Positions 15,067 to 34,439 of a stretch of DNA of 64,000 bases are shown here, piece after piece. A program made the position numbers and the translations under genes. The notes beneath the pieces were generated by a model. The model was not told the DNA's origin. It saw only the letters and a program-made list of their open reading frames with translations, and searched no databases. The stretch spans positions 806,001 through 870,000 of the forward strand of contig QPGO01000004.1 of assembly GCA_008632985.1 (NCBI GenBank). Reading direction: 5' to 3'. How positions within the stretch are numbered: position 1 is the first letter of the stretch; every line of letters begins with the position of its first letter. Origin of the DNA: Psammoneis japonica (taxonomy: Eukaryota).

Positions 15067-15461
15067 GCAGCTATTCGGGGTCGGGTTGACTTGCTTGAAC
15101 TCTGGTTCCGCCGTTGTCTGCTGCGAGGAACTGCAGAACAGGTTCAAGTCTCGCCACTTACTACAGTTGGATCCCGCACTGCATTCCGCGCGGCTGGGTA
15201 GTTTGCGGCTACCGGTAGGCTCTAGCTACTAGGGGTGGCTAATGGTAAATATCTAGAGGCACACCGATTTCCGCCTTCACTCTCTCAAAACTCTCTCCGC
15301 TTGTAACTATCTAGAGTTAGAGTGTAGATAAGGCGTGTGTGTGTGTATCGGCGGCGCAACAGAGAGGTGCTCTTCTCTGACGAGACACGCTAGTCACCGC
15401 AACTCACCCGATTTTGTTGGACATGATACACTATCAATACTAATGCACCAATGACGGAGTG
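15067..15461 (+). repeat. Diverged direct repeat, copy A (matches 19393-19722)
   Basis: Shared colinear blocks GGGTTGACTTGCTTG, AGAACAGGTTCAAG, GCATTCCGCGCGGCTGGGT, TCTCCGCTTGTA, CTATCAA. Confidence 0.9.
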
Positions 15462-15601
15462 ACACCTGCCCTCCCGATCGGAAGCCTCGTTATTGCTTAG
15501 CTCAATGGATTAAAAGTACAACTTTATTATTCATTCTAGTCGGTGCAGTGCTAGTTTCAGTTCCTGAAGTAGAAAATGTTTTCTATTGCTGCTACTTGCT
15601 A

Positions 15602-17026
15602 CTACGACAGAAACGAGAAGAAAAAGGCATCCGTGTCCAACGAATAGGGAGAACTGTTCTGGCCACCAGATGAACAGTTCCCAGAAATGTCGGCCGAGCC
15701 CAGAAATATGGCATCATCGGATGAGCTACCGACGATTCGTATCAAATCGGAATACACCTTGGCCGTCTGTGTCTTTCGAGCAGTGTTGTGGCTCCGATGC
15801 AACCAATCACACTGAAAACGAACCGTTGCACAATCGGGCCCGTGCTGTTCAATTCTTAAAAGTGGTACGCACCACACTTTCCCTTGGATACTTGCAATGA
15901 TGCGCTGCAATATAGGTGCTGGAAAGGACACGAGATTGACTTTGCCACTCCCTTTGGGCTGTAGACAGCCAATAGCTGCATCACCATAGTTCGACGGCGC
16001 ATCGGTGTTCCTCGAAAGGAAAAACGTTGACTTGTCTGCTACCGAAACTGACAAGTCAATGGCGCAAAGCCATCGCCACCCGAGGTTCCACAGAGTTTGC
16101 AAGACACCACAAATGAGTTTGGCCGAGGCAATATTTTCCTCTGTGGTCTGTGGACACCAAGGCCGTCCAATGCATTTGATTTGTCGAGTACCTTCAAAGT
16201 TGTTCGTCTCACTAATCCCGCGTTTCCAATGGTTTTGGACAGCACTATCAAGTGCAGATATGGTCATCTCATCCGTAACTCCAATGAGACGAATCTTGTG
16301 CATCCGTTCCAGCGCAATGGCACAAATCTCCGGGGGAAGGCGTCGAGGCATGGATGGGTCACGAAAGAACAAGAGTGAATCAGCATCGTAATCGCTAATG
16401 GAGCAGTCAAACGATACGACTCGACTCCAGCCATTTGATTCCATATATGCCAGCATCTTGATGACCATCTTGTATGCATCCACACTTTGAGAACTGCTCT
16501 TTTCCTTAGATAGCCAGGGTCGGCCAGCCAACTTGTATCCACGAATCCCGTACTTGTCATTCACAGTTACACCATATTTCCAGCTTGAAACAAGCACCTG
16601 CCTTAACCCTTCCATTTCCGATTCGGGAAGTTGTACTAAGCGAACCTTGTCTACGTGGCCCAGCTGTATAACAGCGAGTTGTGTGGGGTGGATGTCAGAA
16701 TTTCTTTGAAAGAAGAGAGTCCCCGCCGACCACCCAACAATGTTTAGGTCGGCGCAGCACAAGAGCTGCATATTATGTTGTTGCATGGCTTGCACGAGAT
16801 CCAAAAAGATCTGACGAGATGCAACGCTGGAAGCGTGGTAATCTTTCCAAACGTTAGTAGATTGAAATTTTAGTCGATAGCCACCGTCGCGCGGTGTTTT
16901 CAAGGCCTGCTGGATGTGACTATTGTTTGTGTTGTGGAAGAGGGCAAAATCTGCCTCGCAAAAGGGTTGAATCAGCGCCTTGGGCCCACTGCAGTAGTAA
17001 AGAGAAATCGTTTGGACTTCTGCCAT
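15602..17026 (-). CDS. Uncharacterised protein with ~115-aa internal repeats
   Basis: Intact intronless 474-aa ORF; repeated KVRLV/KIRLI/KVNLV ... GRPW ... GW ... DxS ... FF units. Confidence 0.85.
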   Translation of the reverse strand: MAEVQTISLYYCSGPKALIQPFCEADFALFHNTNNSHIQQALKTPRDGGYRLKFQSTNVWKDYHASSVASRQIFLDLVQAMQQHNMQLLCCADLNIVGWSAGTLFFQRNSDIHPTQLAVIQLGHVDKVRLVQLPESEMEGLRQVLVSSWKYGVTVNDKYGIRGYKLAGRPWLSKEKSSSQSVDAYKMVIKMLAYMESNGWSRVVSFDCSISDYDADSLLFFRDPSMPRRLPPEICAIALERMHKIRLIGVTDEMTISALDSAVQNHWKRGISETNNFEGTRQIKCIGRPWCPQTTEENIASAKLICGVLQTLWNLGWRWLCAIDLSVSVADKSTFFLSRNTDAPSNYGDAAIGCLQPKGSGKVNLVSFPAPILQRIIASIQGKVWCVPLLRIEQHGPDCATVRFQCDWLHRSHNTARKTQTAKVYSDLIRIVGSSSDDAIFLGSADISGNCSSGGQNSSPYSLDTDAFFFSFLS

Positions 17027-17206
17027 AGCGATTGTACTGTAGATTGTAGGAGTAACGACGACTAACCACGACGATAATGTGAGAAAATGAGGTCGAAAAG
17101 GTGCGTCTTCGTCAAAATCAGCGAATGAAAATTGAAAATCGCGAGCAAAATCACGCTACCGGGAATGAAAAGCACGACTGTAATCTTCCCTCGTTGTTGC
17201 GAGCTA

Positions 17207-17524
17207 CTACGAATTGCTGAACAATTGCGCGATACACGTGCCGGAACGGTGATTGTTGCTTCGGGCACGAAATTCGAGCTTCGCGCACGTAGAGACCGTA
17301 GAATATGTACCAGCATTCGAGAATGTCCGATTTGTGTAGATCACGTAGCACCGTACCACAGAGGTCATTTCATGAAATTCCCGCGACGACTCATACGACT
17401 CCAATGGTATTTTCAATACCATATGCTATGTAGAATGGACATCTCCCGAACGGTGATTGTTGCTTCGGGCAACGATATTCGAGCTTCGGGCACGTGTATC
17501 GCGCAATTGTTTTGCAATTCGTAG
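17207..17524. mobile_element. MITE with ~36-40 bp terminal inverted repeats and TA target-site duplication (Tc1/mariner type)
   Basis: CTACGAATTGCtgAACAATTGCGCGATACACGTGCC at 17207 versus its reverse complement at 17489-17524 (2 mismatches); TA at 17205-17206 and 17525-17526; internal repeat GAACGGTGATTGTTGCTTCGGGCA occurs twice. Confidence 0.85.
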
Positions 17525-17526
17525 TA

Positions 17527-19390
17527 ATGTACAGCATGGTGTCTCTTGGAGTCCTGACTACTCTCATCATTCTCGCTTCGTTTCTGCCGACTTACAAACT
17601 GCTAAGCAAGACGGAGCCTCTGGATTCGGCTGAGTTGAATTTCATCGCTGGTGGTTTGGTGGCTCTTGCATGTGGTGGCATCATGGGATGCACGAAGACA
17701 GGTTCGAAGCCCAGTTTTGTGGGAGGGTTGGCAGGTGGGGTTCTGCTGGTGCTGCCGAATCACAGTTTGAGGGCCACCTGCTGGCTGGCACCATGGGCGT
17801 TATCCTCATGTTTATGCCCACTGGACTCGTCGCCGCTGTGGGAGCTGGCATCACAGTGTGTGCAACTTCAGAGCTTCGCCTCTGATCTCTTTGCAGGATT
17901 TGGAAAAAATGCTTTGCGTGCACTCCAGCAACAGTCCTCCAGTCTTGATCTGGTTGCTCCAGTCACCACTTCTGAATTCCAGGCTTGGCTAAACATGCGT
18001 GTGCTCTGACTGGCATTGCTTGACTCTGATCACTCCTGCTTCATTTCCGCAGTCACAACACAAAAGCGAACATGTCACAAAGGAAACGGAGCTCTGTTTC
18101 ACCGCCGTTTGGGATGGATCTGCACCATGCATCAAAACAGCTGTTGGGAGAGGAAGTGGTCAATCTTTCAACATGAGAGAACACAAAAAGAAGCTGTGGG
18201 CGGTGCTGCTTTCGACACGGGATTCTGGCGCGGGACGGCAGAGGTCGTTCGGGTTCTCTTGAAGCAAGAGACTGTGAACGCAAATGTTGCTGTCCATGAC
18301 AATGATTGCCCAGAGCACCAGGCCTTGTGGCAGGGGGGTCCTTGTTCAGTTTGGAGCTGAAGTGGAGGCTGAGAACATCCATGGAGCAAGGCCCTTGTCC
18401 TGCACAAGCACGAGAGGTCATGCTCCCATTGTCAAACTGCTTGTTGAAAAATGCCATGCCATCATTGATGTTAAATCACCATTCAGCTGTGCCCCCCAGC
18501 ATTTTGTGTGCAATGGGGTGCACGTTGATGTTGTTGCAACGCTTGTTCAGTTTGGCGCCCAGGTGGATGCAATGGACAGGGACAGAAACAGCGCACTTCA
18601 TGCACATGGATTGTGCCGGAAAGCACCCAGATGCTGTCCGTGTGCTCCTTTCAGTTGGTCAGTTGGTGCGAATCCAACTCAAGTTGACAATGCCGGGAAG
18701 CAACCATCAGACAGCATCACCTGGAGGAAGCAAAAGAGAGCTGTGGGCAATCTGGAAGTTGCGCTGCAGAAATTTGCTGGAGTCAACAGGTGTGCCATCA
18801 CTTCCAACAGAGAGATTTGTGCCTCAGAAAGCTGGGAAAATTGTGACATTAGAATGTTGTCGGTGCATTGTGTGCCAGAACCTCCTCACATGAGGAAGAC
18901 AGAAATGGATGGGCCACCGCACTTTTTCCTTTCTCACACCAGAATGAAAGAGCAGATGGCACAACCAGCGCATTGGCTTCTCACAATTGTGCCAAAGGCG
19001 GAGGCCTTTCTTGACAATGAGACAATCTAAGCAGGTGAAGACAATTTTTTCTCTGGGGTCAAACCAGCTCTGACCATTTCATCCCCATCATTCCAGAAAC
19101 ACGAATCCTGCGCAATGAAATGAACACGTTCATGTCCCGGCTTGCAAGGAAAGATGGCATTGATCTTCTTCCAGCTCTGTGGCATGCCATGCCAGTGAAA
19201 AATTCAGTGGCATCAGTGATCTTGTTGATGGCTGTGCAAAAGAAGACAATGACACAGTCTGGCTCAAGGGCGAAAGTGGTGATCCTGCGGAACACATGGT
19301 TGGCAGTCTCTGGCCACAACTGGTCCAGGTGCAGGCAAAAATGAAAAAGTGCTGCACTGCGAGTTGAAGGACATGACCTTGAACGCCATC
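17527..19390 (+). pseudogene. Hypermutated, frameshifted gene: TMEM14-like TM region, ankyrin repeats, TIR-like C-terminus
   Basis: GGIMGCTKTGSKPSFVGGL (TMEM14-like, Y>C); ankyrin fragments GHAPIVKLLVE, GVHVDVVATLVQFGAQVDAMDRDRNSALH; FFLSHT...FLDNETI; several frameshifts and stops; TA almost absent. Confidence 0.7.
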
Positions 19391-19392
19391 TC

Positions 19393-19722
19393 GCAGCTAT
19401 TCAGGGCCGGGTTGACTTGCTTGTACTATCTCTGGTTCCCCCGTTGTCTGCTAACTACAGAACAGGTTCAAGGTCTCGCTACTAGTTTGATCCCGCCCAG
19501 CATTCCGCGCGGCTGGGTGGCTTGTGGGGTGGTGGTAAATCTCTAGAGGCTTACCGATTTCTGCATTCCACTCTCTGAAACTTTCTCCGCTTGTAGAAAG
19601 AGTGTGCCTATCGGCATTGACAGAGGTGTTCTTGTCTGCTGAGACTTACTGTCGCCGCCGCCACCAACCCGATCTTTTTTGAGGCGGTACCCTATCAACA
19701 CTAACGCATCTATGACGAAGTG
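19393..19722 (+). repeat. Diverged direct repeat, copy B (matches 15067-15461)
   Basis: Same colinear blocks as copy A, with several small deletions. Confidence 0.9.
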
Positions 19723-19755: not shown

Positions 19756-22700
19756 TTAAAGCTCAGACACTTCTCTAGTGACACGAGTGGCACGTTGTGC
19801 TGCAACAACGCTAGACACACTGACGCCGATCACAAGCAGGCTGACAATAGCAACCTCCAATAAAACACGCCATCCCGTGTGTTCCTTTTCCTGTTTATAC
19901 TTGTGTGCATGTCCAGTATTGAAATGAAGCGGTACAAAACTGACCCGACGGTATTGGTCTGTGTTTGATCGATGCTCATTCTCGAGCCGAAAGAAGGCCC
20001 AGACCGTACGTCGAACAAGCTCCAGAGACATTGTTACCGCCGTAAGGTACTGCGGTAGCTCAAACCTGGCACCGGATTGAGGAGGGATCAAACTCTGTAC
20101 CCACATGAATCGCAAGACAAAGTCTGCCAACATTACTGCATAGTACCACCATCGCTGAGGATACATGAGTCGCGGACCAAGGAAGCCATATTTTCGTAAT
20201 CCAAGACCCTAAATAGATTTCAAGAACGAAGCAACAACAGTGAGAGAGAACAGAATCTGTTTCTCACACAAAATTATCCATCGTTTACTTTACCCAATCC
20301 ATAAACACGTCCCAACAGAAACTATATAATGAAGACGCAACAAAGAGCATCATCCAGAAAATCTGAAAAACTGAAATAGAGTTGACAGTCTGTCCATGCT
20401 TCTCCTTCTCTCCGAGCCAGTCGAGATACAAGGGATGAAAAGCCCCGAATAACGTAACTGTTTGAGACATTGCATATTTGAATGCGTTGGCAAGATTGGG
20501 CCACCGCTTCTTTGTGTCCAGATACCGACGAAGACATTGATTGAACCGAAACCACAACGGAAACAAACAGATTAGTGGAATCAAGACGTTCTTATACCAA
20601 AATGCATGCTGCCAATCATGAGCTGTTGATTCTGAATCGGTCTCCGGGATCAAGAAGTCTCCGGACAGAATGAATCCTAGTGTCCAAGCAATGTCCTGAA
20701 AGACTTTCACCATGCTAGTCAAGACGTCCCCAATGTACGTATGAAAGAACGACACGGGATGGAAAGGGGCTGTAGCAACTTCGTAGATCTTTTTCCACAT
20801 GGCAGATCTCGTCTTCCACGGGAAAAGGAGGTGCTTCACAGTGAACAGCACCAAAATGAATGGATACACGCCGCCCGGGACTATGTCCGGGATAGCCTGT
20901 GCCCCGGACTACAGGAAAATGGCAACATTCAAAAATATTAGCATACTTTGTTATCGACGAAAGAGTTGCACGATTATGATCTCACCTTGTAGTACAGAAG
21001 CATGAGCACAAGGAATGTCAAGTTTTCATCTACAACATCGTTGAAGATTTTTGTGGGGCTGTCAACTAGCTTTGGATTGAAGTCGAAGAGGTAAATATAA
21101 TTGACGCGGTATCGAGACCATACGTATACGCTGATTCCCCACAGCCAATGAAGCAGTAGAAGCCCCCCACAAGCTCGAAACACTGGGAACGCCGTTCGGC
21201 CTCCTATCGTTGAGCGTCCATCTTCGAGTAGACCCCAAATGCAATCCCAGCATACCCATAATGCCAATACTGAGCACATTCCGAGACGATATCCAAGGCT
21301 TTGCAATGTGGAAGTCAGTGCAAAAAGGTATAAGGGTTGAACTGGGGTTGAAATGAAATAAAACTCTCGCCCCCAACAGGCGGAGCGCATCCACCAAAAA
21401 CATTAAATTACTCACCGAAGCTGTGACCAATCTGTTTGCAGACCGTCACCACGTTTCGGAAGAATTTGAGCACGAGCTTCTCGTATGTTTCCTCCGCAGA
21501 ACCACTTCGCATAGAGCTTTTCCTTCGACCCGCGGCAGGAGTATTGGACACAATTGCACTAGTCGTTAACGACAAATAGTGACGCAACACGGCGATTGCT
21601 AGTAGTGGCAAACTTACCATACGATCCGCAATCTCTTCTGCCCCTGAACCTTCATCACACACTCTTGAGCTATCAGTAAATTCCTTGAAATACCCCTTCT
21701 TCTCTGGAAAGGTCTTGTCATGCTTTTTGATGATCTTGACGAACCCGGTGTAGTTGATTATGGAAAAATTGTGGAGCAGTTTCGCCATCCTTTGTTGGTC
21801 AGTGATTGCTCGCCTAACCGAATCAGCCTCTCTTATTCTATCCAGCGTTTCTTGCTTCTCCCCGCCAGCTTCTTCATTGTCAGAGAGTTCATCGTCCATA
21901 CCCTGAGATTCCGCGGGATTCCAAGGTTGAGCGAGACGAATGTTCTGAAGTCGATTGAACATGTCCGCCACTCGTCTTCTTCGTCGATGAGCACCAGGTG
22001 CATCCATATCCTCAGCTGGAGCCATGGACGAGAAGTGTTTGGAAGAGCGGACGCTGTCCACCAGGAACTTAAGCCTGCTTTCTAGCTCCTCTAGCTTAGA
22101 ATCGTAAAAGGCGTTCACCTTGTCAACCTGTGAAGCGATAGTCGAGATCGAAAAGCGTCAGAAGGGATTGCACGAATTGTTCGTTTACAAAAGACTGAAT
22201 GCAGCATCAGGAACGAACCTCTTCGACAAGAGTTTTAGCAAAAAGGCCTTCTTGGTTCTCCACAGCGATGAGAGCATCTCTAAGTTTGTTTTCGTATTTA
22301 CTCTTTGAAAAGTATCCGGTCACACCTTTGATTAATGAATGAACAGACGAATCTCCCATTTTCCTGTCATTCGAGCCAATGGAACGGAAGGATCCATGCG
22401 AATGCAATGACAGGTTACTCCCGTAACGAGGATCATGAGAGTTCTTCAATAGCTGCGCCGTCTCTGACGTCGTGGCATCACTTGCTGCTGCGCTGCCACC
22501 ACCGTCATTTTGAACTTCTGCTTTAGCCTCGTCCTTCTCGGCAGTCTTTGCTCTATCTGCAATGGCTTTCAAGTCTGTTGAAGAATTGACCCTCGAAGGA
22601 ACAAAGGCTAAACTTCCAGCTTCGTAGGCTTCCTGGATTTGCTTGGCAAGGTCAGGTCGCCTTTTGACCAATTCATCGCGTTTTTTCGCCGCTTCCTTTA

Positions 22701-22797
22701 GTTTCTTTAGAATCGCCTTCAGCTTCTCGTAGTTTATATAGAACTCTGCCCATTCGGCAACCTTATTATCTTCCAATTTTAGTCCAAACTCGACCAT
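19756..22797 (-). CDS. SPX-EXS phosphate exporter (XPR1/PHO1/SYG1 family), multi-exon
   Basis: MVEFG..L...W.EFYINYEKLK (SPX), INYTGFVKIIKKHDK, RVNYIYLF, GDVLTS, RFNQCLRRY, NAFKY, WDVFMDW, RRTVWAFFRLENEH. Confidence 0.95.
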
Positions 22798-24574: not shown

Positions 24575-26596
24575 GGTGCAACAATTTTTTCCTTGTGACA
24601 CATGAGCAACCAGTCTCACACTCGCCTCCACAAAAAGTCTTCACAAAACATGTCATGTCCAACAATTTGGAGAGAATGTCTTCACCCCACTTTTGTTCAG
24701 CATCCAGAATTTTGTGTGTCAAGGGAAAGACATTGTCTCAGGATTTGGGTGAAACTTTCTCAGCCAGATCTTCAATGCTGAGGTTTCCCATGGGTTCAAT
24801 TTTTTCACAGCAAGTCAGCTGATCATGTCTGTGACAATGTTTGCCTTGCTCTCAAGGCAAACCAATTCAGGGCTGCATTCTTCTGTTGTCATTTGCCAAT
24901 GCATGACTCTGTCCATTGTGAAGTTCTTGTGGGTGAGATTCTCACGATCCGTGTGCACATCAATCTGTTGGCCAAACAGCATGTTCCAGAATTCCTTGAG
25001 TGTCTCTCCACTGTGGGTGGAAGTTCTGTTTCTGTTGGAGTGCAGTGTGTCTGTGCTCCATTTAACTTGTGACTGCAGAAGGCAACAGGTTGGTTGTTCT
25101 ACACAATGACTGGCCCCAATTGAGAATTGCTTGCGCAGGCATGTGTCTCAAAGAGTTTGTTGAAATTTGGATGTGAAAATGATGTGCATTTTGAAACAAT
25201 TGTTTGCTTCACATTTTTGAAGGTGTTTTGTTCAATTTCAGTCCATTGCCACTTCACCTTGGATGAGGTGAGTTTGGCCAAAGGAGCAAGAACATGAGAT
25301 TGTTGAGGCCACACATCTCAACAGCAGTCAATCGTGCCAACAAAACATTGCAATTCCTTGCAAGTTTTGGGAGTTGCAATCAACTGAATCACCTCCACTT
25401 TCTTTGGCATTGGGCTGATGCCATTGTGGGTGACATGAAAGCATGGACAGTCTGCTTTGGGTTTTGCAAAGAAGGACTTTTTGGCATTGATCTTCAACCC
25501 AGCTTGTTCAAGGCACATGAGTGCTGTTTCAAGCTTTTTGAGATGGTCTTGAAAATCACCTTTTGTGAGACACAGTGTGTCATCAGTGCAATCATTGAGT
25601 TCTGATGGACTCCAGACTTGCCGTGAGTTCACTCATGTGCTCTTAAAAAATGTCTGGAGCTCCACAGATTTCCATGGGCAGTCTGCAGCACTCACATTTG
25701 CCTCAAGGCATGAGGACAGTGCACAAGTGACATGGCAGCATCCCATGTAAAAATCAAGTGAAGCAGCACACACAAAACCTTCAAGTTTTTGCAGCATGTC
25801 TTGAATGTCAGGCAGAGAGAATGGAGCACACATTGACCTCTCATTCAGTTCACGGAAGTTGGACAGAAACCAAACTTGACCTTTTTTTGTTGAACAAAGG
25901 TTGGAGCTGCCCATTTGGAACAATTTGTTTTTCTCAAGACTTTCAACTTGCACAGTCTTTCAACTTCCTTTCAAGCAGTTGCCTCCAAGCCTTGTGGTGC
26001 AGAAAATGGCTTCGCGTGATGCGGACTCACGCCCAATTTCAACTTGAGATCCACAGGCTTCCTGGTCCATTTGCCTGGAAAACCATCAAAAAGGTTTTCA
26101 AATCTTTTTAGGGGGGAAGTTCAACTGCTTCTGCTCCTCTGGAGTTAGATGAGTTGCTGCTGCAGCCACATTGTCAAGGCCAGCTGTGTGATGATCTGAG
26201 TCAAGAATCCAGCTGACCCTGTCATTGAGGCTGATCATGGTGTGAGATTCCCAATGTGATTGGCAATCAGCTTGAACACCACATCAGCATCAAAAAGTGC
26301 ATCAACATTCTTCACAGGTGCAGCTGCTTTCTCCCATTTGATTTCTTTGTTTGCAAAGTCCAATGTGGTCCCAAGACTGGACATTGAGTTGCAACCTGTG
26401 ATCACATCACAATGACTCAAAGAAGAAGGGGCATTGTCAACACATGCCGTTGTTTCTGTCATCTTGTGTTTGTCAAATTCAGGTGAAGAGAACTGCGCTG
26501 CACAGCAACTGTCAGCCATGAAGAGCCCACCCTTGGTTTCCCAAGTTTTGGTGGCAGATTTCTTCATTCTCAGTTTCATTTTGAATTTGCACAAAA

Positions 26597-26614
26597 TTGT
26601 GGTTGACAACATTC
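26597..26614 (+). repeat. Left target-site duplication of the LINE (TTGTGGTTGACAACATTC)
   Basis: Identical 18-mer at 34440-34457. Confidence 0.93.
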
Positions 26615-29600
26615 ACTTTTCTACACAAGCACACATTGGTCGTTTCCACGTAGAATTCTGCGAGCTTTTTGCACCAAGCAGCCGTCACCATGACGACCCC
26701 TCCTCCACGCAGGCTGGCCCTGCCAGTGTTCCTCCCCCGGATCCTCCCCCCATTGTGGATTACACCCCATCGACTCCAACAAGAACTGGGTCCAAAAAGT
26801 CCAACGCAATTGGCCCTGACGAAATCACGATCCATTTTGAGTTGACGTCGGCAGAGGACAATGCCTCTGCGGTGCCAGCTGTGGGTCACACCACTGTCCT
26901 CCATGCCCCACAACAAAAAGCATCTCAAGATCCTTTGACCCACAAAATCTCCATCATGTCGAATCGAGGAATTGATGTTCCCGACATCAACGTCGTCGAA
27001 TGGAATTCTGGACTAACTCATTCGCAACACTTCGTGGTTCACCGCGTCGGAGGCACCCGCCGCCGCCCTCCTGCTCACATCATCGCCCACCGCATCCGTG
27101 CTGCTTTGACTCTTGCCGAAATCAGGAATGTTCCCTTTGTTCACAAAGTTCTCAAAGATGACGGCATTTACATGCGACGTCATGAATGGGACGAAACTGC
27201 CGTCGATTTATCTCGTGTTGCCCTTGTTCTCGATTTCGCGCCAAAGCATTACCCTGCGGACATTGTTCAGAAACGACTCATGTCAATTCTGCCACCCCGC
27301 AGTCGCTCCAAGGTTCCCTTCTGGTTGATTGTTCAATCGGCAACATCCCCACTCGACAAGGATGTCAAAGCAACTTTCTACACAATCGAGACTCCTCGAG
27401 ACCGAGCCAAAGATGTGATTGCTGCTTTGATGGAAGTGCTGAAGGATCATCCTTTAGCGGTTGTCTTCACTCGCTGGCGGTGCACCCAACCAGAACAATT
27501 CGACAAAGCAGTTCGGAAGCAACGTAAAACCGCAGCCATGCTCCATGTGATTCCATTGTTGCGTTACACTGATGGAGTGCATTTTTACATGTCTGACAAA
27601 ATTGCAACAATCCCCGGAGCAGTGGACGTCGTTCCAGCAAAGAAGAAAACCTTGATTCCCCATCACAACATTCTCGTGGACAAACTGTGCTTTCACAAAG
27701 CCAAAGAACAAATCACTGAAAACTTGTCGGAATGGACAAACAATCGTTCATTCACCAACCACATCCTGTGATTCCGGGTCTCAATGACGACATCTCCGGC
27801 ACAGCTCAGTCCATTGCCTCGGCGACCATCCAAAGCTGGAAGTCGTCAGACATTTCTGATGTCTCGCCTTCTGACTCCCATGCCACCAAACCTGCTCCAC
27901 AGCCATCCCCCCCACCGGTTCCACGAAACGTCGGGATTCACGGAGGTTTTCAGACCTTTGCCCAAGCACTGGAAAGTTCCACAAGCGCGGCAGTGCCAAG
28001 AGCAACCCCAACTTCGGAGTTGACATCTCAGACTGACGACATCGCAGAACTCAAACAAATGGTCTTACAGCACCATCAGGAACAGGATCGTCGGTTAGAG
28101 CAGCCAGAACAGCAACATCAGGCATCTCTTGAGCAACTTGCATTAAAGTTTCAATCTCTGATTCAAGAAACAATTTCAACCATGTCTCAAGGTGCAGCAT
28201 CTCCTCAGAGGAAGAAACCTGCACTTTCCGCTCCGGCAGGGTCTTCATCTCATCATCCTCCCAACGACACCACTGTGGACGACGCCGAACAAGATGACTC
28301 AGTTTTTTCCTGGGGCAGGACCAGTCGTCTCACCTGCCTGGCTCCCATGACGCACACGCCAGTCGCACTTCTCAGTCTTTCTTCGAGAAAGCATGGCATC
28401 ACACCCGGGGGTGACACCCCTTCGGTGGCACTTAATCCCGCTGCTCAGCAGTGGTCCCAGATGTTGTCAGGCAGAAGTTTTGCACCTCTCTCCAGCACTG
28501 TTGATCACACTGCTTTGCAACAGAATGACCCGATCGGAGATCAGTTAGGCCCTAAATCTCCTGAACACACACGATTGCACGTGTTCAACGCAAACGGATG
28601 CGCTCATGACCTCCAAGGTGGCGACTTCAATGCACATTCTCAAGTCGCTGTGGAAGTGCAGGCAGATGTCGTTGGAACATCCGAAACTTGCTCAGACACT
28701 GCGCAGTTCAAAGTCCGACAGAGTTGCTCCAATGCAGTTTGCCAGTCTCTTCATCACGGCCGTTTGACGTTGTCATCCTCCAAGACCACCTTTTCTGCTC
28801 CTTACAAACCAGGGGGCACCGCCTCATTTTCATGTGATTCCCTGTCTTCACGTTGCCGTGCCCAATGTGAGGATCCCCTTGGAAGATGGTCCATTCAAAT
28901 TTTCGATGGACGCCACGGATGGCAAGTGATGTTTGTGTCTTGTTGTCGAGTTTGCTCTGGCTCTTCGGTTGCAGGAAAAACAACAGCCTGTGCTCAACAG
29001 GTGGCACTGCTGCGACAACAAGGGCGAGCGAACCTAGACCCAAGACGATCCTTTTGTGCTGACCTGACTCGGATCTTAGAGAGGTTTCTCGATGACACCG
29101 ACCGAGAGGTTGTTCTGTTCGGAGACTTCAATGCAGACTTCCGAACTGATGACGACACCCTCGCTTCCATGGCGCAACGGTTCAACATGTCTGATGCAAT
29201 GTATCACCATCAAGAAGACCTTGAATTTTCCACTTGCATGAGAGGATCTTGTCGGTTAGACTTCGTTTTGGCAACCCCAGGGGCTTTGGCAGCCTCTAGA
29301 AAGTGTGGACACGAATCTTTCGGATGTCGCACATCTTCGGATCACCGAGCGCATTTTGTCGATTTTGACACAGTGGCATTGTTTGGCAACCCTGCCGTCG
29401 ACCCACCACGTGCCGAACACCGTGACCTGCAAGCAAATGCTCCCAAACACATCACCACATGCCTGGAGACAATGGCTTCACTGTTGTGCAGCCGAAACGT
29501 CACGGCGCGAACCGAAGCCTTGATCCAGTCCTCGACTCCAGACCACAGACTCGCAGAGAGACTTGATCGGGACATCCTGCAGTTTTCCATGTCGTCTGCG

Positions 29601-32600
29601 AAGCATTGCCGATGACATGAAGAACCAGCATGGTCTGTTAAACTGGCTGGTCTCCGTCGACAGATTTTCGCATTGTCCAGGATGATGTCGATGTTTCGTG
29701 CCAAGGTCGACATGGTGCCTTCGATTCTGCGTGCTAAGTTTGACCTCAAAGATTCCTTTGTTCTCCCAATTGCCCCACAGGAATGTGCGATTGCTCTGCG
29801 AAAAGCTCAGTCAGAGTGCCGTCAGGCAGCACGCGAATGTCAGCAACATCGAGACGAAGAACAAGATGCCCGCATCGCTGAACTCGAACTGGATGGCACC
29901 AAACAATCGAAGGCCACTGCACGAATTTTACGGAATCAACATTGTGCAGAAGAAACCAAGAGGGCATTCAGGAAGATCAATGCGTGCAAGAGAGCGGAAG
30001 GAGCCAGCGTCCGAACCATTCAGATTCCTGAAGATCCCAGAGATGATCCCAAAACATGCGAGAATTGGATGACGATCGACGCTCCAGACGATGTGGAATC
30101 AGCTCTCCAACACAGAAACCAACGGCACTTCGGCCAGGCACAAGGCACTCCCCCTGCAGTTCCACCTCTGTCAGTCGACTTGGGCTGTGAAGGTGACACA
30201 GCAATGGCGGATCTAATCCTAGACGGAGAATGCGAAACCAGTCACCTGAACCGTGCTGCTTCGTTGTTGATGCAACACCTTCGACGAAGGACTCCATCAG
30301 CAGTTTCAAATTCCCTCACCCCAGAGGCACTTCGCTCAAAGACAAAACTGTGGTCAGAGTCAACGTCTGCCTCCTTGAAGTCAGGGCCACATTTGGGACA
30401 CTGGAAAGCTGTGTGTGCTCCACATTCCCACTCCAATGATTGTGATGAAGACGGCATCCCTTCAGATCGGAAAGAGTTGTCAGACTCAGTTCAGCAGTCA
30501 CCAGTGTCTGTGCGACTCAATCTGATCAACTGTGCACTAAAGTGGGGATGCTCACACGAACGGTGGAAGGACATGGTCAATGTCATGATCTTCAAAGAAC
30601 CAGGCAATGACAAAATACACCGACTGCGAGTGATTCACATTTACGAGGCGGACTTTCAACTCATTGCAAGTGTGAAGTGGCGTGAGTTAGCCCAGCACAT
30701 GGAACATCATCGAATGCACAATCCCGGCATTTGCAGATGTCGCTCCTTCCTCTCTGCTCAAACTCCTGTGTTTCTCGAAAACATGATGCTGGAGACATCG
30801 CGCGCCTCACGGAAAACCTCACTCACAAGTGACGACGACTGCACCTCTTGCCACAACAGGAACATTCCAGCGACAGCAGGTCTCTGCGCAAAGAGCGATG
30901 GGATGCATGAGAAAGTTGTGAAAGTGAACGTGGCAACTCTGCACCACGCACGGCATTGGTTACGCACTTTGTTGGGACTCGCCCGAAAAAGTTGTTCTCA
31001 TTCCCCCGAGCACCCGTTGCATGGAACAGGACAAGGCAGCGGCAACTCTCCCTGGTGCTGGAACACTCTGTGCAGCAGACTGTTTGACATCTTTGACGCA
31101 GAAGCCATCGGCTCATTTTTCGAAACTCCGGATGGACAGTTTTACATCCGCGCACACAACAGAGGTTATGTTGACGATGCGTCTAAGCAGGTGAACGACT
31201 TTAGAGCAAGCCCTCAGCCCTCAGCACTCGAGCCATCTCAGGCACTTCAATCAGACAACCAGTTGTGGTGTGACTTGCTGGACGCAGCTGGACACGAACT
31301 AGAATTACCGAAGTGTTCTTTCCACGCCATCGAATGGGATTTTACCGAGTGCGGTGAACCGTGTGTTCGACCTTGTCACGACGACATCGAGGTGGAGATT
31401 TTTTCCGCCGACCGTTCCACTTCACGTTGCAGCAAGCAATTGTCAGCTTACACTCCCCATAAAACTCTGGGACATTGCATGGCTCCCATCGGTGCGCAGA
31501 AGACTCAGCTGCAGAAATTACAACACAAGAGCGACACTGTTTCGTCATTTCTTCGGTCATGTCCTTTGGATCGTACAGAAACCTGGCGATGTTGCCATGC
31601 CTGTTGCCTCTCATCGATGACATGTGTTCTGGCTAACTCTAATTTTCTCCCGAAAGAATTGCAACAGGCACAACAGAAGGCTGTGCGAACGATTTTTGCA
31701 AAATGCGGCTACAACAGAAACACGAAACGTCTTGTTCTTTACGGTCCCCAGGCTTTAGGAGGAGGAGGGTTTCGATCGCTCGACACAGAACAAGGAGTTG
31801 CCCAATTGCTGCAACTGCTGAAGCACTCAAGAGGAGTTGCCCATCTTCAACTTGGGGAAGATCAACCATGCAAGTTACTTCACATTGCCGTTGCATGGAT
31901 TCAGTTAAACTTGGGGACAGGCGACAGTTTTTTGTGGGACGTGGAGACAGAGTTGCCACACATGGAATCGCGATGGTTCGTGTTGGTCCGAGCATTTCTG
32001 CAACGGATCAACGGCCGAGTGTTCCTAACTCACAATGGAACACTTCCGCTACAATGAGACAACGACCAATGTCTGATGGACATCGTTTTGAGATCCAAGA
32101 CCTTCTCTGCACGAGAGATTCGGTGGATTGGTCATTGCCGATTGTTCCTTCGGGTCTTGTCTGTCTCGGATGTCACTCTTTCAGATGGTGTTGCAATTGA
32201 CGGTTCAAAAGTGAAAGGGGAACCCTCTCTGTGCAGCAGCCCAAGCACCCTTGACAACGTCGAACAATGCAAACCGTGCAAGCGAGCTTGGACAGCGTGG
32301 GGGAAATTCTGTGCAAGTTTGTGTGGTCCAAAATCACTTCAACTGAAGGAACCTCTCGGCGATTGGTCATTTCCTCCGTCAAAAATGAGGATGCAATCTA
32401 CCGCTTGCTGCTCCCCATCTGAAGAGCACTTGTGCGTTTGTTCATTGGAAGGTCATGACATTTTCCAGGTGAACGGAACTACAACTGATTCAATTGTCGA
32501 GATCGAGACCGTTCCAACCCCCTCCGAAGAGTCTCACCCAGCAGAGGTTTCTGCACTCGAGGACGGACAATGGCGATTTGAAATTCCGCGTACATCACTC

Positions 32601-34439
32601 ACACCTCCATCAACCCCAGATGCACCGGACTCCTTTTTCGAGAGCCTGCAACGATTGGAACTTTGGGAGTCTACATTGTTTGATGCTTTGGAACTGCATG
32701 TGTCCTCTCAAGCATTGGTTCAACACTTTCTTTCGTCAACTCTCACTGCAGGCAGTGACGGCTCTGTACGTGAGGGAGCCACGTTCGGCTGGACGATTAC
32801 CTTGAACGGCACTCCACCAGTCGATTGTGCTGGCCCTGTGTTCGGGAAGAAACCTTCCTCGTATCGCGCGGAAGCCTGCGGCATTCTTTCAATCGCTCGG
32901 TTCATTTGCCGATTGTGTGAACATTGTCGGATTTCTGCTCCATTGGACGCGGTGATTCACTGTGACAACAAAGCTTTGGTCGAATGCCTGTCTCGGTTGA
33001 CATCTGCTCCACCTGTGATCGACCCAGGAGACGAAGCACACACCATGCATGATTTTCACATTCGGCATCACGGCGCCAATGCCATGTCCTCAGACTGGGA
33101 TGTCTTGAACAAAATTCTTTGTGCCCAGCGAACGTTGAAGCTGCTCTCGGAGTCGACGGACATGACTCTTCCCACAGTTTCTTGGGTGAAAGGACATCAA
33201 GACAGGCACACTCCAGTTCACACCTTGCCCTTAAATGCAAGAGTCAACATCCGGGCGGACAGATTGGCAGGATCATGTCAAGGCCACTGCCTGTGCGACA
33301 CCGATCAGGTCAAGCATCTTCCTCATTGCCATTCTTGTTTCAAGACAGAGGGCGGTGCGGTGACTTCCAATTGCAAGAAACAAATCAGATGCGCTGCCAC
33401 AGCTCCCCCACTGCCAGAGTGCATCGTCGAACGTAGCCAATGGACTGATGCGGTGATCGAGCAAGTTGACTGGAATGCACACGCAATCCCAGTGAAACGC
33501 CATTCAAAGCAGCACGTGAACACGGTCAAATTGGTTCACGATTTGCCACCCACGAATGAAATCGTCCACAGACATGACCCAGTGCGTCCCCACCAGTGCA
33601 TTGCGTGTGATCATCCAATGGAAGACAGGGATCACATTCTACGATGCCCCAACAACGAGCAGTGGAGGAGGAAGTTTTTACAAGGATTGCGCCGCTGTTG
33701 TGACAAGGTGGACACCATGCCTGTCCTACGTGACTTTCTTCTGGATGTGTCACAGGCTTGGTTTAATGAGGAAATCACTTGTCTTGCGGATGTGGATTAC
33801 AGACTCAAAGAGTTGTGGAAAGCCCAGACTGACATTGGCTGGAGACAGATTTTTAATGGTCGATGTTCGTTTGTGTGGAACCTGCTGCAATCCGGCCACC
33901 TTCGTGATTCAGGTGTCTTGAGGCAATGTCAAGAAGAGAACAAGCAGCCACCGGATTGGACCGTCCAGGTCGGATCACACATGTGGAGAAGTTGGTGGGA
34001 ACTGTGGGAGGAACATGACAAGCTCGTCCACGGGCACGACGTGGAATCTCGTAAGTCTTCCCAGCGGCGAAGGGTGGAGGCCGAATTGACTGCGATTTGC
34101 AACAAACGTCAGGAGCATTTGGCGAAAGATGGAGGCGTGCTGCTTGACTCGGTCGAGGAACACCGTACATTTTCGACGACGAGGATTCAAAATTGGATTT
34201 CAATGGTGCGACCACGCCTCCAAGACAGCTTGAAAGAAGCCAAACGCCCAGCCAAACGTGGCACTCGCACCATTTGTAGCTACTTCCGTCGGGCGCCCCC
34301 CACTGGGGGCACCGGGTCAGGCCAATTGCACACAATTTCTGCCGCATCCTTTTAGGGTGTGCTGGAAGTGTGGGTCAGCCGGCGCCGGTGTTGCTGGGCA
34401 AAGGTGCAACAGCACTTAAAAATTAGAGTTTGGTTTTTT
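26615..34439 (+). mobile_element. Near full-length non-LTR retrotransposon, Ambal-like (ORF1; APE endonuclease-RT-RNase H)
   Basis: APE motifs FNANG, FGDFNA, RLDFV, SDHRA; RT motifs KIHRLRVIHIYEAD, GTGQGSGNSP, GYVDD, LELPKC; RNase H motifs SDGS, SSYRAE, HCDN, WVKGHQD, ADRLA; ORFs at 27732, 29673 and 32076 share one frame; 18-bp TSD. Confidence 0.93.

Follow-up and report, generated by a model that had tools for sequence, protein, structure and literature searches.

A stretch of about 1.8 kb in the genome of the diatom Psammoneis japonica, situated between two intact genes, has lost nearly all of its TA dinucleotides and about half of its CG dinucleotides and has gained CA and TG. This island is single-copy host DNA, in which two genes lie broken, one for TMEM14 and one for an ankyrin-TIR protein. 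We put the probability at about 0.55 that the locus, which was likely silenced, underwent hypermutation of TpA to CpA or TpG in place, in addition to CG decay. The window analyzed is the 64,000-nucleotide stretch C5:806001-870000, where C5 is the contig that bears it (QPGO01000004.1) in an assembly of 91.4 Mb and 597 contigs (GCA_008632985.1). Positions refer to the window unless a contig or locus is named.

Composition and extent of the island

Expected dinucleotide counts were taken from 43.2 kb of ordinary window DNA. Between the TAs at 17603 and 19398 (i.e., over 17605-19397), the island contains 6 TA compared with 70.5 expected (Poisson P 4e-23), and the minimum among background windows of the same length is 39. 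The TA loss claimed in the original prediction, which was made from the sequence alone, is therefore borne out. Its companion claim that most CG is also lacking was too strong: CG is merely halved (50 vs. 103 expected, P 5e-9, observed/expected ratio [o/e] about 0.42), and the interiors of larger blocks drop lower (the larger block of the window has CG o/e values of 0.22 and 0.09 in two of its parts). CA and TG are both in excess (178 vs. 129 expected, o/e 1.72, and 197 vs. 133 expected, o/e 1.66, respectively).

The gains and losses nearly cancel. TA is down by 64 and CG by 53, CA and TG together are up by 113, and pyrimidine-purine steps total 431, compared with 435 expected. Given an ordinary starting composition, CG decay supplies only 53 of the 113 CA and TG gained, so the remainder must derive from TA. 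The island thus has the feature by which TpA hypermutation is recognized, TpA depletion with CpA/TpG enrichment in a discrete region. It is carried letter for letter by one 5.6-kb Logan contig of sequencing run X1, and so is not an assembly artifact, with the caveat that X1 may be the source sample of the assembly. The coordinates of the island and of the features in and around it are given in Table 1.

Table 1. Features of the island and its immediate surroundings (window positions)
Feature	Position	Strand	Basis
TA- and CG-depleted, CA/TG-enriched island	17607..19395	.	Two-state HMM segment C5:823607-825395, TA o/e 0.06, CG o/e 0.43; counts and change points
Broken TMEM14 (Tmemb_14) gene, frameshifted, shortened	17626..17885	+	PF03647 above cut-off (E 1.4e-5); paralogue on contig C99 matched by two pieces, in two frames
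Ankyrin repeats of broken gene	18338..18601	+	PF00023 above cut-off (E 1.7e-4) and PF12796 below it
TIR-domain remnant in three frames with an in-frame stop (19028), its C-terminal tail shortened or absent	18845..19331	+	HMM of genomic TIR_2-positive paralogues
Leader that keeps TA, either the 5' UTR of TMEM14 or an N-terminal extension	17527..17606	+	4 TA in 81 bp; upstream of homology start at 17626
Multicopy MITE with 42-nt terminal inverted repeats and a TA at each end, no TA/CG depletion	17205..17526	.	
Direct repeat B, keeps TA, start = right edge	19393..19722	+	17 TA in 330 bp
Direct repeat A, keeps TA, 4.3 kb upstream of B	15067..15465	+	
Conserved, intact diatom gene of 474 aa, divergent from island, normal TA/CG	15602..17026	-	
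SPX-EXS gene, domain exons intact, convergent with island, normal TA/CG	19756..22797	-	PF03124 and PF03105 on five exon frames

Remnants of host genes inside the island

The original prediction described a host-like gene. The host-like character stands, and the single gene does not, as there are two broken units (TMEM14 and ankyrin-TIR), which may once have been one gene or two. The TMEM14 remnant scores 26.1 bits against the PF03647 cut-off of 24.8 and is one of two matches to this family in the assembly. It aligns to an intact TMEM14 paralogue on contig C99 in two frames (55% and 30% identity). The ankyrin part is 28-40% identical to ankyrin paralogues in the same assembly. It also contains an 8-bp tandem duplication (18652-18667).

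An HMM built from 16 TIR_2-positive paralogues of this genome matches three successive frames of the island with E-values of 2.8e-16, 3.3e-9, and 1.5e-7. There is no direct Pfam TIR_2 (PF13676) match in the island, and the TIR assignment comes solely through these paralogues. TIR homology is supported to about 19330, which is ~40 residues short of the end of the family region, and 62 bp then remain before repeat B. An extension of the homology by eye to 19392 was rejected for want of HMM support. Overall, the island contains at least three homology-supported frameshifts.

As the original prediction had stated, no transposon domain is present in the five island reading frames scanned with Pfam. 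Taken together with the DNA search (see below), in which the island is single copy, this leaves no transposon remnant, whether a transposon domain or dispersed DNA copies, that would mark it as an internal part of a transposable element, although it may be an element that has decayed wholly. Nor does a viral or other foreign origin fit, given that the TMEM14, ankyrin, and TIR remnants all have paralogues in the same genome. Here, the dinucleotide signature of nearby transposon blocks is found on host-gene DNA, and the proposal that the target need not be a retroelement is upheld.

Direction of change

Two features of the island bear on the direction of change, the balance of pyrimidine-purine steps described above and an absence of tyrosine. 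Its homology-supported frames contain no Tyr codon in 282, compared with 5-8 per 203 residues in seven TIR paralogues and 60 of 2421 in four intact open reading frames of the window. A third line of evidence is a back-change test that uses distant paralogues as the reference for the family residue. With the strictest of three filters (at least five homologues and 75% agreement per column), the family residue is recovered by 15 of 90 CA/TG-type back-changes, compared with 5 of 115 other transitions (P 0.004). By class, the counts are 8/36 vs. 2/49 for CG (P 0.016) and 7/54 vs. 3/66 for TA (P 0.11). Over the three filters, P ranges from 0.008-0.016 for the CG class, 0.11-1.0 for the TA class, and 0.004-0.066 for both jointly; the TA class alone gives P 1.0 with the two looser filters and unfiltered. 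The unfiltered test is not significant in either class (TA, 9/152 vs. 13/236; CG, 17/143 vs. 16/205). Because the TA class alone is not significant with paralogues as reference, we infer the TA to CA/TG direction from the step balance and the missing Tyr. The change also likely occurred in place.

Base-by-base polarity would require an unmutated orthologue, allele, or strain, and none was found. In the search for a close orthologue of the island, the ankyrin matches were generic and the TMEM14 piece was without a match; the Atlas search gave a TMEM14 match at lead level only (0.84); and no locus emerged when metagenomes were scanned twice for synteny around the 474-aa neighbor. If the DNA had instead come from a donor that was already poor in TA and CG, no mutation in place would be needed, and the lack of a close orthologue would be expected. 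We regard this as very improbable. The nearest TIR relatives that we found, like the TMEM14 paralogue, belong to this genome and show ordinary TA and CG, and the GC content of the island (0.51) resembles that of the host. A resident process is also indicated by the exactness of the CA/TG balance and by 20 other blocks that bear the same signature.

Copy number and the fate of duplicates

The original prediction drew an analogy with repeat-induced point mutation (RIP) of duplicated genes and took targeting to depend on duplication or methylation. In fungi, RIP introduces G:C-to-A:T changes into duplicates of >400 bp that are >80% identical, raising TpA and lowering CpA/TpG (PMC3562529). The likeness lies in regional, dinucleotide-biased transitions that destroy reading frames. 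The difference, relative to that account of RIP, is that the spectrum of the island is reversed (TpA down, CpA/TpG up) and that no duplicate was found.

The copy search used 17530-19400 as the query, leaving out the MITE because its copies swamped the matches. The sole candidate in the assembly was the island itself. The identical search with two control small islands on C5 returned 43 and 66 non-self matches, mostly at 64-83% identity, and so is able to detect diverged copies. Both controls (1-3 kb) are repeat fragments; thus, small islands may mostly be repeats, and this one exceptional. Among run X1 contigs at 80% likeness, depth is 61 on the island and 58 on the left flank, with no alternative letters and no second allele. 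Relatives of the island are seen at the protein level (~24-56% identity), and a blastn comparison with 32 fetched loci gave no alignment above 16 bases. It should be noted that lack of a match does not prove rarity, and a copy may have been deleted. With positive controls in place, the island nevertheless shows no DNA copy, let alone the duplicate of >400 bp at >80% identity that RIP requires, as expected where the target of TpA hypermutation need not be repeated. The original prediction had held that absence of both a paralogue and methylation would count against it, and at the DNA level, in the assembly and the read contigs, no paralogue was found.

The converse question is whether duplicates in this genome are mutated. 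Among TIR genes, 30 loci gave 60 alignments of at least 500 bp and 80% identity, of which 58 remained after two self-overlaps were dropped (one pair at 99.7% identity may be an assembly duplicate). In 56 of the 58, between distinct loci at 80-99.7% identity over 0.5-3.3 kb, TA o/e is 0.42-0.78 on both sides and CG is kept. Of the other two, the first straddles an edge (TA o/e 0.39/0.38), whereas both copies of the second are TA-poor (0.02/0.06). The 14 best MITE copies (91-98% identical) all keep TA (19-22) and CG (25-32). Both sets are biased to intact copies, the MITE is under the 400 bp of RIP, and selection may have removed lineages whose duplicates were mutated. Duplication is not sufficient for TA loss here, and the island suggests that it is not necessary either. 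The proposed dependence on duplication therefore fails on three counts: no DNA copy was found, recent duplicates are untouched, and TpA is destroyed where RIP would make it.

There is one arrangement in which a RIP-like trigger could still have acted, namely an old tandem duplication, of which direct repeats A and B are the remains, that induced mutation by pairing and whose second copy was later deleted. Repeats A and B do lie on either side of a 4.3-kb block, with no third copy found in the assembly, and both copies of one duplicated stretch next to two TIR genes are TA-poor. However, the part of the duplication that survives keeps TA, with symmetric exchanges between A and B (5 vs. 4), and the 474-aa gene within the same block is untouched. 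Considering also the 56 intact TIR alignments and the reversed spectrum, we find such a lost partner improbable.

The TA-poor duplicated stretch lies upstream of the two TIR genes (L036:2328-2994 and L040:395-1039). The adjoining duplicated gene part keeps TA, and the edge falls at about the same place in both copies.

Edges and immediate surroundings

The 95% intervals of the TA change points are 17559-17682 on the left and 19332-19424 on the right (those for CG are far wider), so the edges are as abrupt as TA density can resolve, in agreement with the original prediction. Also in agreement, the intact genes on either side have normal TA and CG, and the upstream MITE keeps TA (20 TA and 31 CG in 322 bp). 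The MITE has a contig depth of ~4,000, compared with 60 for unique DNA. The neighboring 474-aa gene has 22 homologues at up to 74% identity, including named clusters from Fragilariopsis cylindrus (65%) and Nitzschia sp. (55%). Contigs of run X2 show an intron-like joint at 20207-20293 and cover parts of both neighbors, leaving the island uncovered, which carries no evidential weight.

The left edge falls about where the start of the C99 paralogue would map (near 17608), 80 bp from the MITE. These 80 bp were originally described as the first part of the gene. They do keep TA, and their place in the gene is doubtful: they precede the start of TMEM14 homology, and so may be leader DNA. Read in frame, 17536-17600 gives a hydrophobic stretch that, by eye, we take to resemble a signal peptide; a CT-rich UTR could look alike. 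Spreading of TA loss from the MITE was considered and rejected: of the 28 1-kb flanks examined beside other MITE copies, 4 have TA o/e <0.3, compared with 148 of 463 C5 windows, i.e., no enrichment.

On the right, TA returns at 19398, five bases into repeat B, as predicted. When the edges are compared with homology boundaries, a check that the original prediction had proposed, the left corresponds to the start of TMEM14 homology and the right to a structural junction instead. Given this junction, a chromatin border is not required on the right. Moreover, the TIR tail seems truncated there, so that this edge may be the scar of a rearrangement. Repeats A and B differ at 68 of 323 aligned bases with nine gap runs (79% identical) and have no Rfam match. 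Each sits just beyond the 3' end of a minus-strand gene. Relative to the assembly, run X1 has 1- and 2-base insertions at 15147 and 15334, which are possibly small assembly errors.

A two-state HMM applied to 464 kb of C5 called 21 TA-poor blocks, of which six are under 2.5 kb. Ten of the blocks measure at least 5 kb, and across their 20 edges the TA share of pyrimidine-purine steps drops from 0.19 to 0.012 in the space of 150 bp, a steepness that is partly by construction, as the edges were called on TA. CG lags behind TA across the same edges (0.23, 0.19, 0.11, and 0.07 of pyrimidine-purine steps). The island matches the pattern of the larger blocks; thus, sharp TA edges are normal in this genome. 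The sharpness that the original prediction singled out is genuine, and it is not special to the island, as step-like edges are typical of the C5 blocks. Pfam searches on 89 frames from nine other small islands gave one weak match, below cut-off.

These observations bear on the possibility that the two genes were mutated at the margin of a larger transposon block, or elsewhere, and were isolated later by a deletion or move at ~19392/19393. We consider this unlikely, while giving it some weight: the interval of the right edge includes the start of repeat B, the TIR homology stops short of both the family end and the repeat, and repeat-bearing blocks are common (34% of the 464 kb). Against it, the island contains no transposon remnant, and its CG loss is milder than that of large-block interiors (~0.11 vs. 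~0.07 of pyrimidine-purine steps). Furthermore, a gradient of CG or TA loss along the island, first suspected by eye, is not significant (P 0.20 and 0.40, respectively).

Relation to known systems

TpA hypermutation has already been described in one unrelated alga, Bigelowiella natans, in a preprint by Mettrop et al. (bioRxiv 10.64898/2026.01.13.699255). There, TpA changes to TpG/CpA at ~1000x background within a viral insert that is single copy and silent, and adenine deamination by an ADAT-type deaminase is proposed. In both algae, TpA is lost to TpG/CpA in discrete regions, and the best-studied B. natans target, like the island, is single copy (it is also transcriptionally silent). TA-poor, CA/TG-rich clusters are described genome-wide in B. 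natans, with some affected coding sequences carrying host-type domains. In contrast to our 1.8-kb host pseudogene in a diatom, the targets measured there are viruses that have integrated into the genome, 25 and 186 kb in length, and are read as foreign. Depletion of TpA is also partial in that account (Rho 0.45), whereas the island has a TA o/e of 0.06 and has lost CG too.

What is new, relative to the available text of that preprint, is an isolated single-copy host target with controls against the RIP analogy. The affected-gene tables of the preprint may already include single-copy host pseudogenes. Our search for TpA hypermutation or TA depletion in diatoms, the coverage of which did not extend to subscription journals or the preprint supplements, found no paper. 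The sole paper found on TpA hypermutation frames it, in its accessible parts, as defense against foreign DNA, and RIP needs a duplicate; the island is neither foreign nor duplicated. Because it is host DNA, found once, and 3.8 kb from the nearest larger TA-poor block, the targeting signal is narrowed to a local state of the DNA.

Our preferred reading is that the locus likely fell silent first. The MITE inserted between two divergent start sites is a possible trigger, and it could have cut TMEM14 from its promoter. Once silent, the locus would have been CG-methylated like transposon islands in diatoms, where DNMT5-type CG methylation in Phaeodactylum tricornutum marks mainly transposons and not host genes (PMC9998398). 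Cytosine methylation would then likely account for the loss of half of the CG; the halved count is compatible with it, judging from sequence. The CG methylation described there leaves the TA loss unexplained. A putative resident TpA-specific mutator would have rewritten TA in place to CA or TG, guided presumably by the silent chromatin state and not by homology pairing or foreign origin.

Extended to diatoms in general, this would mean that A:T-to-G:C editing reads silent chromatin, not homology or foreignness. It would finish any small silenced locus, including single-copy host genes and spent TIR immune-receptor genes, and stop within ~100 bp of active DNA. We advance this generalization tentatively and would not yet bet on it. 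If true, an island of 1.8 kb with a working gene on either side would serve as a minimal substrate in the search for the targeting signal. In any case, it is a small locus with defined edges for methylation and histone mapping, and the gain is a clean test case rather than a new system.

Other TA-poor DNA and the TIR family

A second TIR pseudogene, on contig C117, is TA-poor and single copy over the 1 kb tested. It sits within a 12-kb TA-poor block (C117:137000-149500, L122-L123) with milder CG loss and few repeat matches in the data at hand, and so is not a second isolated case.

The TIR family is large (L020-L058, on many contigs), with 32 PF13676 matches and open frames of up to ~1400 aa. 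By eye, its partner domains are presumably Roc-COR-like, U-box-like, Kelch-like, ankyrin, and NB-ARC-like, and the family looks like a set of fast-shuffling candidate immune receptors.

Elsewhere in the window, 26416-34355 contains open frames of 451-813 aa with an endonuclease domain (PF03372). With a TA o/e of 0.16 and a CG o/e of 0.81, this region shows TA loss largely without CG loss.
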